Below are positions 51,001-54,000 of a stretch of 64,000 nt of DNA, piece by piece. The first letter of the stretch is position 1, and each line of letters starts with the position of its first letter. The stretch lies in IMG/VR virus record IMGVR_UViG_646311923_000012, one strand, 5' to 3'. The position numbers were made by a program. The stretch comes from a virus (taxonomy: Duplodnaviria; Heunggongvirae; Uroviricota; Caudoviricetes).

Positions 51001-54000
51001 TTATCCGCATCCAGTATCACCACCTGCGTGATTACCCTGTCCTGCTCCGGGATAATGCCATTCTCATCGGACTCCAGAATGTCTGCCGGTCCCAGTCGCA
51101 GCTGTGCTGTAAGCGACTGCACGTGTTCACGGCCATCATGCTTTCCGCAACCACACATACGCTGCATAAGTTTTTTTAGTATGTTCATGTCATTCGTAAG
51201 CGACTCGTCAGAACCGTATTGATATTTACTGAGAGCTCAGATCAACTTTCCAGGGCAACAGATCGCGTACCCGGTTTGCCGGCCAGTCCTGGATATGTTC
51301 AATGACGTAACGCAGCCACTTTTCTGGCTCCACATTGTTCAGACGGCATGTGCCGATCAGCGAGTACAACACCGCCGCATGTTCACCACCGCTGTCGGAA
51401 CCCGCGAACATCCAGTTTTTCCGGCCTACGGCCACTCCCCGTAAGGCGTTCTCTGCGATGTTGTTGTCGATTTCCACCCAGCCATTACTGCAGTACACGT
51501 TCAGTGCATCCCACTGTTTCAGCAGGTATGCGAACGCTTTTGCCGTATCTGAGTGACGCGACAGTGTTTTCATCTGTTGCTGTATCCAGTCATACAGTGA
51601 CTGCATCAGTGGCGCGGCTCTGGCTTTTCTTGCCGCCAGACGCTGTTCTGCTGAACAGCCCCGGACCTCTGCCTCGATGGCATACAGTTCACCGATACGC
51701 TGCAGGGCTTCCGTGGTGATGTAGGTGGGCGCTCTTGCATGCACATCGTGGATTTTTCTCCGGGCATGAGCCATACACGCGGCTTCCGTTATTCTGCCGG
51801 ATTCGTATAACGCCCGGTAACCACCGTAAGCATCGGCCTGAAGCACACCGCTGTAACCGGCCAGGTGATTTTGTGGATGGATACCTTTCCGGTCCGGACT
51901 GTACGCGAACCAGACCGCCGGGGGCATCTGTGAACCGGCGTTACGGTCATCACGGACGTAGACCCACAGCCGGGCTGTCCGGGTTTTACCGCTGCCCGGC
52001 TCCTGGACCGGGACGGGGATATCATCAGCATGGACTTTACCGGGCATCAGCACATACTGGCGCAGGACGTCATACAGCGGCTCCAGCAGTTCAGCAACAG
52101 CACCTGTCCAGCGCCCCAGTGTGGCACGGCTCAGCTCCACTCCCTGACGACGGTATATTTCTGACTGGCAGTATAACGGCAGATGGTCTGCATATTTCCC
52201 GGTGACAACATGGGCCAGAAGCCCCGCTCCGGCATAACTGCGTGCAATGGGTTTTGAAGGTACTGGTGCCTGCACGATATGGTCGCACCGGCAACAGGCC
52301 TGTTTCGGACGTTGTGTTTCGATAACCTTAAAGGCGCTGCTGATAAGCTCCAGTTGCTCTGACACATCACATCCCAGAGAACTGAGTTCACCACCACAGG
52401 CAGGACAGCATTCCTCTTCCGGCCGGATAACCCGGGTTTCACGGGGAAGTGAGGCCGGTAACGGTTTACGGGCTGAAGACTGGCGCAGGGCGGATGGCAG
52501 TACCGGGTCATATTGCTCACCCAGCGTTTCCGCCATTTCTTCCTGAAGTGCGCTGATTCGCTCCTGTGCTTCCTGTATCTGCCGTTCGGTTTTTGCACGA
52601 AGTTTTTCTGAGCTTTTACCGAACTGCATACGTTGCAGTTTCGCAACCAGCGCCTTCAGCCGGTTGATTTCGGAAGCATAAGCCGCCACCCGCTGTGAGA
52701 GCAGGCGGTTGTATTCAGCCATCTGGCGGATGGTGTCCTGTTGCGTCTGCAACAGTGCCCGCAGGCGGGCGTTCTCATGAGCAAGTGAGGTGTCCATATC
52801 CTCACTTTACAACGGGTTATATGCGGATTCCAGCGCGTTCCGTTCGTTTCGGGTGCTTCCAGTTGATACCTTCAAGAAGCATGGATAACTGAGCCGGAGT
52901 AAGGTGCACCTTGCCGTCACGGGTGACTGGCCAGACGAAGCGGCCCCGCTCCAGGCGTTTGGTGAAGAGGCACAGTCCGTCACTGTCAGCCCACAACACT
53001 TTTATCTGGTCACCCCGGCGTCCGCGGAAGATGAACAGGTGTCCGGAGAACGGGTCATCCTTCAGGACGTTCTGAACTTTTGATGCCAGGCCGTTAAAGC
53101 CATTTCGCATATCGGTGATACCTGCAACCAGCCAGATACGCGAACCTGCAGGGAGAGATATCATCAGTGGCTGCTCCCTTTTATTTCGCGGATAAGTGTC
53201 TGTAATAACGCCGGCGTCAGTTTACCTTTAAGCCTGAGAGTTCCGGCCGGCAGAACCAGCTCACAACACAGACTGTCGGACGGTGTATTTATCTGCTCTG
53301 GTTCCTGTGCGGGGGCCGGGATTTTATTATCCGGCTCCGGCGTTAACGTCACGGGAAGCAGTGCCGGCATATTTTTTCCGGAAGGCAGCAGGCCACCTTT
53401 CCGGTATTGATGGCGCCAGTTGAAGAGCAGGTTATCGTTGATTCCGTTTTCCCGGGCGATCTGCGCCACACAGGCTCCGGGCTGCAGTGACTGCTCCACT
53501 AAGGCGATTTTAAACTCATAAGGGAAGTTGGGCCGCCGGGGACGTTTTTTTACCACGGGGGCTTCGGATATAACGGTGCTTTCAGGACGTACGACTGGTA
53601 CCGTGGAAAATTGTCCGTAAAGGCAGGCATCAAGTTCCTGCTCCGACATGCCTGCGGGCAAAGGCCACGAAAGGCCAGCTCTCCGAAAGCGCACGAACAT
53701 ACTACAAACTGTTGATTTTGGTACACCCAGGCGACGCCCGGCCACAACCCGGGGTAAATGTTCTTCAAAGTGAAGACGTAAAGCTTCAGTGATCCAGGTC
53801 CGGTGTTTCATACGATAGTGTCCATTAAAAATGATGGACATTATTTTTGTAGAGCCGGAGGAAACAGACCAGACGGTTTAAATGAGCCGGTTACTGTCAT
53901 TCTCCTGTTCTGCCTGTATCACTGCCCACTTCATCAAGCCCCTTAACATCCTGCCACGGCCCGTCACCAAACCTGACCTGCAAATGCTGAAACAGCCCCT

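Follow-up and report, generated by a model that had tools for sequence, protein, structure and literature searches.

A complete ISCro1-family element at the fibre/small-gene junction of a lambdoid prophage, with an 8-bp target duplication that leaves both flanking reading frames intact

Members of the IS66 family of insertion sequences (IS), as described for IS679 and IS66, reportedly carry three genes in which the tnpA stop overlaps the tnpB start and tnpC follows about 20 bp on; they are also said to end in imperfect terminal repeats that open with GTAA and to duplicate 8 bp of the target. ISCro1 was first named in Citrobacter rodentium ICC168, which has 24 copies (PMC3072379), and is given as 2,824 bp in Escherichia coli ST131 (PMC8764528), so that length variants of ISCro1 exist. 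For the tail fibres of E. coli prophages, it was shown experimentally that PfC, the Phage_fiber_C domain, is an autonomous trimerization module that nucleates the refolding of the collagen triple helix, and enterohaemorrhagic E. coli (EHEC) genomes were found usually to hold several prophages with fibres of the EPclA type (Ghosh et al. 2012, Table 2 for the latter, PMC3368898). In Sp5, marker-free in-frame deletions were made in K-12 MG1655 (Mondal et al. 2016, PMC5155283): ORF67 (ECs1228), a collagen-like fibre, is essential, whereas ORF68 (ECs1229), an 89-aa protein made of PfC only, for which the authors used its own deletion primers, falls outside their nine essential and two impaired genes, is non-essential by their list, and is dispensable for plaque formation and lysogenization. 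Those authors suggested that ORF68 might be a reservoir for fibre variation (PMC5155283). Here, we analyze a 64,000-nt stretch of Caudoviricetes DNA (IMG/VR record IMGVR_UViG_646311923_000012), referred to below as the window, which holds sequence of two prophages, A and B; the positions of octamers, open reading frames (ORFs), and BLAST matches within it are all window coordinates. In prophage B, a 2,699-bp ISCro1-family element lies exactly at the junction of a collagen-like side tail fibre gene and a gene for an 89-aa PfC protein, a junction that is uninterrupted in prophage A.

Taken as a whole, the observations are very probably explained by a simple transposition of ISCro1 that had a mainly translational effect on the prophage B copy of the small gene (copy B) and a small phenotypic cost. 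The structural part of this account meets no contradicting observation. A single event would have put the complete element into the 8-bp target GAATGACA at the fibre/small-gene junction of prophage B, and staggered cleavage followed by repair would have doubled the 8 bp. The octamer TGTCATTC is found at 51188-51195 and again at 53895-53902, in both cases directly abutting the element (51196..53894); a first inspection without database searches, which we call the sequence-only reading, had claimed perfect 8-bp duplications at this place, and they are indeed perfect. The number of octamers in the window, four observed versus 2.65 expected, is not significant. What excludes chance is instead that TGTCATTC flanks, on either side, an element with independently fixed termini, and that the empty site has it in a single copy. 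This empty site is provided by prophage A. Within-window BLAST aligns the left flank (50886-51195) with 1125-1434 at 92% identity and the right flank (53895-54600) with 1427-2132 at 96.6% identity, and the two matches share exactly 8 bp, 1427-1434, which makes prophage A the uninterrupted site with a single TGTCATTC. Octamer search, BLAST, and junction alignment all identify this target (1427..1434), where the coding strand runs GAA-TGA-C-ATG.

On the coding (minus) strand, the junction reads ...CAGGAGAATGA-C-ATGAAT in prophage A and ...CAGGAGAATGACA/GTAACCGG...(IS)...CGCTTAC/GAATGACATGAAC in prophage B, with slashes at the ends of the element. The target GAATGACA covers the last sense codon of the fibre gene, its stop codon, the spacer C, and the A of the small-gene ATG, and it takes in only the last G of the AGGAG Shine-Dalgarno (SD) sequence of the small gene. 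The duplicate on the fibre side (53895..53902) holds the fibre's last codon GAA and stop TGA, while the duplicate on the small-gene side (51188..51195, GAATGACA on the coding strand) has the A of the small-gene ATG as its last coding-strand base; by virtue of the duplication, neither the last codon and stop of the fibre gene nor the ATG of the small gene is lost. Alignment of the A and B junctions confirms that the insertion lies between the fibre stop and the small-gene start. Both reading frames are intact, as had also been claimed: the fibre ends in ...GRTGE* in A and B, and the 89-aa ORF is whole in A and B. The statement that the small gene of prophage A begins 1 nt after the fibre stop (TGA-C-ATG) holds too, and the native junction, which combines this stop-1nt-start arrangement with an AGGAG 6 nt before the ATG, is kept in 78 of 81 sampled prophage copies. 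The order of transcription on the minus strand is J (55942..), lom (55275..55874), the fibre gene (53897..55210/55216), the three IS genes, and the 89-aa ORF (50919..51188), after which espK lies on the opposite strand.

The element itself (51196..53894, minus strand) is complete and co-oriented with the fibre gene and the small gene. It encodes TnpA (53164..53841, minus strand), an accessory protein of 225 aa with an HTH_Tnp_1 domain (Pfam PF01527, 8.6e-15; RefSeq WP_001339397.1); TnpB (52817..53164, minus strand), 115 aa, with a TnpB_IS66 domain (PF05717, 4.7e-40); and TnpC (51226..52797, minus strand), a DDE transposase of 523 aa that matches DDE_Tnp_IS66 (PF03050, 1.4e-101) along with LZ_Tnp_IS66, zf-IS66, and DDE_Tnp_IS66_C. 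The tnpA stop and the tnpB start overlap by one base (53164), and tnpC begins 19 nt after the end of tnpB. The terminal inverted repeats are GTAACCGGCTCATTTAAACCGTCTGG on the minus strand at the tnpA side (53869..53894, GTAAGCG...) and GTAAGCGACTCGTCAGAACCGTATTG on the plus strand at the tnpC side (51196..51221, GTAACCG...); they are imperfect, with matches at 18 of 26 positions, and each end opens 5'-GTAA. The IS66 domains in the three ORFs, the GTAA termini, and the 8-bp duplications bear out the family assignment made in the sequence-only reading. Over its full length (1..2699), the element is 100% identical to annotated E. coli and Salmonella plasmid copies labelled 'IS66-like element ISCro1 family' at NCBI, pipeline labels on which the ISCro1 assignment rests; its identity reaches 99% or more in 974 plasmid records. 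By these matches, the IS66-family element appears to be a standard, mobile ISCro1, and the copy is apparently active. Within the 225-aa TnpA, the Pfam HTH domains span only residues ~102-159, no family matches the first ~100 residues, and the tnpA product given in one GenBank record is shorter, at 161 aa.

The ends of the element do not map elsewhere, and three separate comparisons place them identically. First, 5,426 complete E. coli genomes were compared with a query of 300 bp that had the left junction at its centre: alignments to unrelated ISCro1 copies began at query position ~151 (window 51196), and those to IS-free prophages covered query positions 1-150. Second, five independent plasmid copies share the terminal bases (GTAAGCG...CCGGTTAC), and all five have a perfect 8-bp duplication of their own. 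Third, a scan of IMG/VR for the IS terminus on the tnpC side found 76-77 distinct insertion sites with an identical 41-nt terminus; among the 23 complete IMG/VR copies with both flanks, 18 have perfect 8-bp duplications. The same scan of genome contigs gave only two mis-binned contigs of metagenome-assembled genomes, which were uninformative.

Such a junction could in principle also arise if two IS copies recombined, or as an artefact of assembly. A point in favour of such an origin is an IMG/VR record (L052/L126, IMGVR_UViG_2526164666_000024) that has the same IS/small-gene junction but unrelated sequence on the tnpA-side flank and no duplication, an arrangement that suggests IS-mediated rearrangement at this copy. 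In the window, however, the sequence on either side of the element runs collinear with the empty site of prophage A and carries a perfect 8-bp duplication, and 143 complete genomes that were assembled independently share this filled junction; this origin is effectively refuted, and the chance that it is correct is negligible. The small gene of L052/L126 also has a 1-nt deletion (frameshift) in an A7 run, which could reflect either real decay or a homopolymer sequencing error.

Simple transposition also agrees with how the filled junction is distributed. Its left side occurs in 143 of the 5,426 complete E. coli genomes, and the filled junction occurs in none of 50,697 deposited phage genomes. 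Genomes of O45:H2, O26:H11 (among them the 2009 reference strain 11368), O103, and O111:H11 share a 3.3-kb region, flanks included, at 99.9-100% identity. In O45:H2 FWSEC0003 and O26:H11 11368, the prophage occupies the same chromosomal site, tRNA-Ser beside hyaA, with the same gene order, and the small protein has a common accession (WP_001023483.1). Judged from this shared sequence, the insertion is old enough to be common to O26:H11, O45:H2, O103, and O111 EHEC at the same chromosomal locus. RefSeq annotates all of the parts, namely tnpA, tnpB, an ISCro1-family transposase, a 'prophage tail fiber N-terminal domain-containing protein', and a 'phage tail fiber C-terminal domain-containing protein'. 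The insertion event is real, ordinary, and already known and annotated.

The most plausible reading of the element's position at the very junction is a chance insertion, tolerated since no reading frame was broken. We rejected a strong target-site preference as a sufficient cause, given a maximum of 0.27 bits at any position across 76 distinct sites. An identical ISCro1 in plasmid pEFC36a (JX486126.1, 3662-6440) lies within TGTTATTC and separates the GGAG of yigB from its ATG, with the register and orientation seen in the window and a local context that is alike at 14 of 15 bases; since the overall target preference is weak, this likeness is probably coincidental. The idea that Stx2c phages preserve a fossil of the same junction was rejected as well. 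Stx2c_PV98-693 (LC727876.1; L083 2226..2329) has a solo ISCro1-like terminus of ~104 bp, 91% identical, ~110 bp downstream of an intact small gene and with a different flank. This terminus, which a 222-aa ORF adjoins, is an independent, older IS66-type insertion in the same moron region of Stx2c-converting phages.

For copy B, the predicted effect of the insertion is on the start of translation. The AGGAG that formerly served the small gene (53902..53906, minus strand) is embedded in the last codons of the fibre gene and stands on the fibre side of the IS after the insertion, and what stands before the copy B ATG is the end of the IS. The anti-SD sequence at the 16S 3' end is predicted to pair at -7.4 kcal/mol with the native start and at -2.5 kcal/mol with the copy B start; the former value is in the top 5% of random 25-mers from the window, and the latter is about their median. 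As its junction reads, copy B is devoid of both an SD sequence and stop-start coupling, and its translation would be expected to drop sharply through the loss of this AGGAG ribosome-binding site (RBS) and of the coupling. Transcription of copy B, on the other hand, would probably go on. In lambda, late transcription is carried out by Q-modified polymerase that is resistant to intrinsic and Rho-dependent terminators. The IS and the operon share one orientation, no minus-strand hairpin of terminator type turned up inside the IS in a simple scan, and antitermination by Q, established for lambda, is inferred here for lambdoid late transcription. The minus-strand terminator-like hairpins that were found lie at 55248-55227, in the lom-fibre gap, and at 50839-50827, after the small gene. 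Because transcription is expected to run through the IS, while the SD sequence and the coupling are lost, we expect a defect that is more translational than transcriptional.

The same three features of orientation, missing hairpins, and Q antitermination count against classical transcriptional polarity, in which fibre transcripts would end at Rho-dependent or cryptic terminators inside the 2.7-kb IS and leave little or no small-gene mRNA. This effect, which the sequence-only reading had in view with its 'polar insertion', is unlikely. A 55-nt untranslated gap precedes tnpA, which has no obvious SD sequence, and this stretch could expose the RNA to Rho. An insertion of ISCro1 in E. coli ST131 reduced both transcription and promoter activity of afaA, which lies downstream of it, although that was an insertion in a promoter region and not within an operon (PMC8764528).

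The opposite effect has also to be weighed, namely that copy B, read through from tnpC or driven by a promoter pointing outward from the IS end, escapes its dependence on phage induction and is expressed in the lysogen. Only 37 nt separate the tnpC stop from the small-gene ATG that follows it on the same strand, and the ORF is still intact in the O26, O45, O103, and O111 lineages. However, 37 nt is too distant for efficient coupling, the SD sequence is lost, an intact ORF is equally expected of a recent insertion, and the filled-junction copy L052 is frameshifted in its A-run. A simple scan detected no sigma-70-like promoter in 50700-55400, IS included, and ISCro1 lowered, not raised, downstream expression in the one case studied (PMC8764528). 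We consider expression in the lysogen quite improbable.

Several points weigh against a mainly translational effect of small cost. The scans for promoters and terminators rely on crude consensus matching, and no prediction can be made of Rho-dependent termination within the IS. Prophage B may or may not have kept a working Q-dependent late operon, a matter that falls beyond the window. A weak SD sequence may be compatible with some translation, for example by re-initiation after the tnpC stop. Finally, the Sp5 result, obtained with a short-tailed phage, an EPclB fibre, and one laboratory host, may not hold for other hosts or for lambdoid phages with long tails. The copy B allele, which has neither SD sequence nor coupling, stays intact across several EHEC serotypes. 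There is a very slight chance that copy B is still translated, through tnpC re-initiation or IS read-through; the trimerizing PfC protein would then be made without coordination with the fibre, perhaps even in uninduced lysogens, and might form mixed trimers with, or cap, the fibres of co-resident prophages. Were this true, an untimed PfC protein would imply a function beyond its own phage, such as host-range modulation or interference between prophages.

The small gene is more interesting than the IS, as a conserved copy of a trimerization domain that was dispensable in the only laboratory test so far. Copy B (50919..51188, minus strand) is intact, apart from the SD sequence and the fibre-stop coupling that it has lost, and encodes a variable N-terminus of 27 aa followed by a stand-alone Phage_fiber_C domain. 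The prophage A copy (1158..1427, minus strand), identical to copy B at 78 of 89 residues, has the native AGGAG-N6-ATG and TGA-C-ATG. Residues 28-89 of the small protein match Phage_fiber_C (PF06820, 6.4e-36); they are 40% identical to the C-terminus of the fibre itself (E 9e-13), and copies A and B differ at only two of these 62 residues. In domain content, the 89-aa protein reproduces, as a separate protein, the C-terminal trimerization domain of the fibre. The variable N-terminus contains a conserved CGCG motif. A Pfam scan of the protein (E<=0.01) matched PF06820 only and no Tfa-type tail fibre assembly domain, which leaves the suggestion that it acts as a tail fibre assembly chaperone without family support. 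A PDB sequence search with the 89-aa protein gave no match, and an AlphaFold2 model built from a 17-sequence alignment was too poor for use (mean predicted local distance difference test score, pLDDT, 56.6; predicted template modelling score, pTM, 0.42).

The family to which the small gene belongs is large and confined to prophages of Escherichia and Citrobacter rodentium. Selection was assessed in a sample of 83 copies (80 IMG/VR loci plus the window), in which the ORF is intact in 82. The ratio of nonsynonymous to synonymous polymorphism (pN/pS) is 0.09 in the PfC part, 0.37 in the variable N-terminal 27 residues, and 0.15 overall. Judged by these ratios, the small gene is real and under strong purifying selection. 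Its conserved start, its conserved SD sequence, and this purifying selection argue that it is expressed. We also considered the small gene as a purely silent reservoir cassette, an idea taken from PMC5155283, and found it a poor fit with the conserved ATG and SD sequence, the ORF intact in 82 of 83 copies, and the pN/pS of 0.09. In four singletons (P0065, P0066, P0087, and P0024), collagen repeats, the J C-terminus, Lom, or other N-terminal sequence is fused directly to a PfC of the small-gene type; these look like deletion products in decaying prophages, and P0065, in which collagen is joined to the small-type PfC, is the sole hint of cassette-like exchange.

The small protein fits the ORF68/ECs1229 type, with ~89 aa, a single Phage_fiber_C domain, and a start 1 nt after the fibre stop, a position that for copy B is true of the pre-insertion state. 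The phenotypic cost of the insertion is probably small, because the small protein is a PfC copy, its orthologue is dispensable in Sp5, and near-identical paralogues are present in the genome. A second small-gene copy, near-identical in PfC, lies in the same 64-kb window, and complementation of copy B by paralogues in the same genome is likely. The expectation that the insertion may tell whether the small gene is needed is weakened accordingly: paralogues can complement copy B, and the deletion of the orthologue ORF68/ECs1229 is already in print.

The fibre gene of prophage B (53897..55210, minus strand) encodes 437 aa in RefSeq, and its ORF reaches a GTG at 55216. Its domains are phage_tail_N (PF08400, residues 3-135), Collagen (PF01391, 253-311), and Phage_fiber_C (PF06820, 365-428); with PfN, a low-complexity coiled coil, one collagen domain, and PfC, it has the EPclA architecture (PMC3368898). 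The fibre of prophage A (1429..2742, minus strand) is 96.8% identical at the protein level. Table 3 of Ghosh et al. 2012 (PMC3368898) contains ECO26_1634, a 440-aa EPclA fibre of prophage P06 of O26:H11 11368, which appears to be the prophage B fibre gene; the match is by strain, architecture, and length, as the paper gives no coordinates. Fibre B is expected to be unaffected by the insertion. Between lom and the fibre gene, a gap of 58 nt contains a strong terminator-like hairpin (55248..55227, minus strand) of eight pairs, seven of them G-C, followed by a T-run, and in view of this hairpin the fibre and the small gene probably need antitermination, or a separate promoter, for their expression.

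Prophage B is lambdoid and integrated at tRNA-Ser beside hyaA. Prophage A is tandemly integrated in the same tRNA-Ser, which borders prophage B, with its integrase at 47272..48291. The match between the window and the O45:H2 locus extends down to 48433, where it breaks off within the tRNA, of which only the 3' part is left (48433..48492); ARAGORN called no tRNA at 48433..48492. The same tandem prophage join is present in 22 complete genomes, including an O121 strain. In Stx phages, a tRNA-Met(CAT)/Arg/Arg cluster usually lies just upstream of stx. Prophage A has such a cluster at 29901..30150, followed directly, with no stx genes between, by a 616-aa ORF (27561..29411) that may resemble the NanS-p esterases of Stx phages. 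A 237-aa ORF at 30179..30892 looks by eye like an AraC-type regulator. Type III effector genes are found at the ends of both prophages, at 1..981 (minus strand), a 326-aa ORF at the end of prophage A that may be NleB-like, and at 49103..50464 (plus strand), which is EspK per RefSeq and comes after prophage B. A truncated tfa pseudogene follows (about 48574..48714).

In itself, the insertion carries little weight, as one of many IS insertions in EHEC prophages and one that is in reference genomes already. Its value, which is limited, is that of a clear case in which an 8-bp duplication spares two abutting ORFs yet severs the downstream gene from an RBS embedded in its upstream neighbour. Annotation pipelines score such an outcome as 'both genes intact'.

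Compared with known systems, the element shares with the described ISCro1 family copies its nucleotide sequence, its tnpA, tnpB, and tnpC proteins, its termini, and its 8-bp duplications, and only the insertion site differs. Relative to IS679 and IS66, it has the same gene organisation, GTAA ends, and 8-bp duplication but is a different member of the family, compared by description only. Fibre B has the PfN-coiled coil-collagen-PfC architecture and the length, about 437 aa, of the EHEC EPclA fibres, from which it shows no relevant difference; the paper that describes those fibres discusses neither a downstream small gene nor an IS (PMC3368898). In lambda, stf-tfa occupies the same genome position, with a small gene directly after the side tail fibre and downstream of J and lom, and Stf shares the PfN domain with the prophage B fibre. 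Unlike lambda Tfa, the 89-aa protein has no Tfa-type domain, and the truncated tfa pseudogene of prophage B is a separate gene further downstream. ORF68 of Sp5/VT2-Sakai has 89 aa as here, an identical AGGAGAATGA-C-ATG junction, and 81 of 89 residues identical to copy B. The Stx2 phage Sp5 has a short tail, a fibre of the EPclB type, and an uninterrupted junction, whereas prophage B is a long-tailed lambdoid with an EPclA fibre and a junction filled by the IS.

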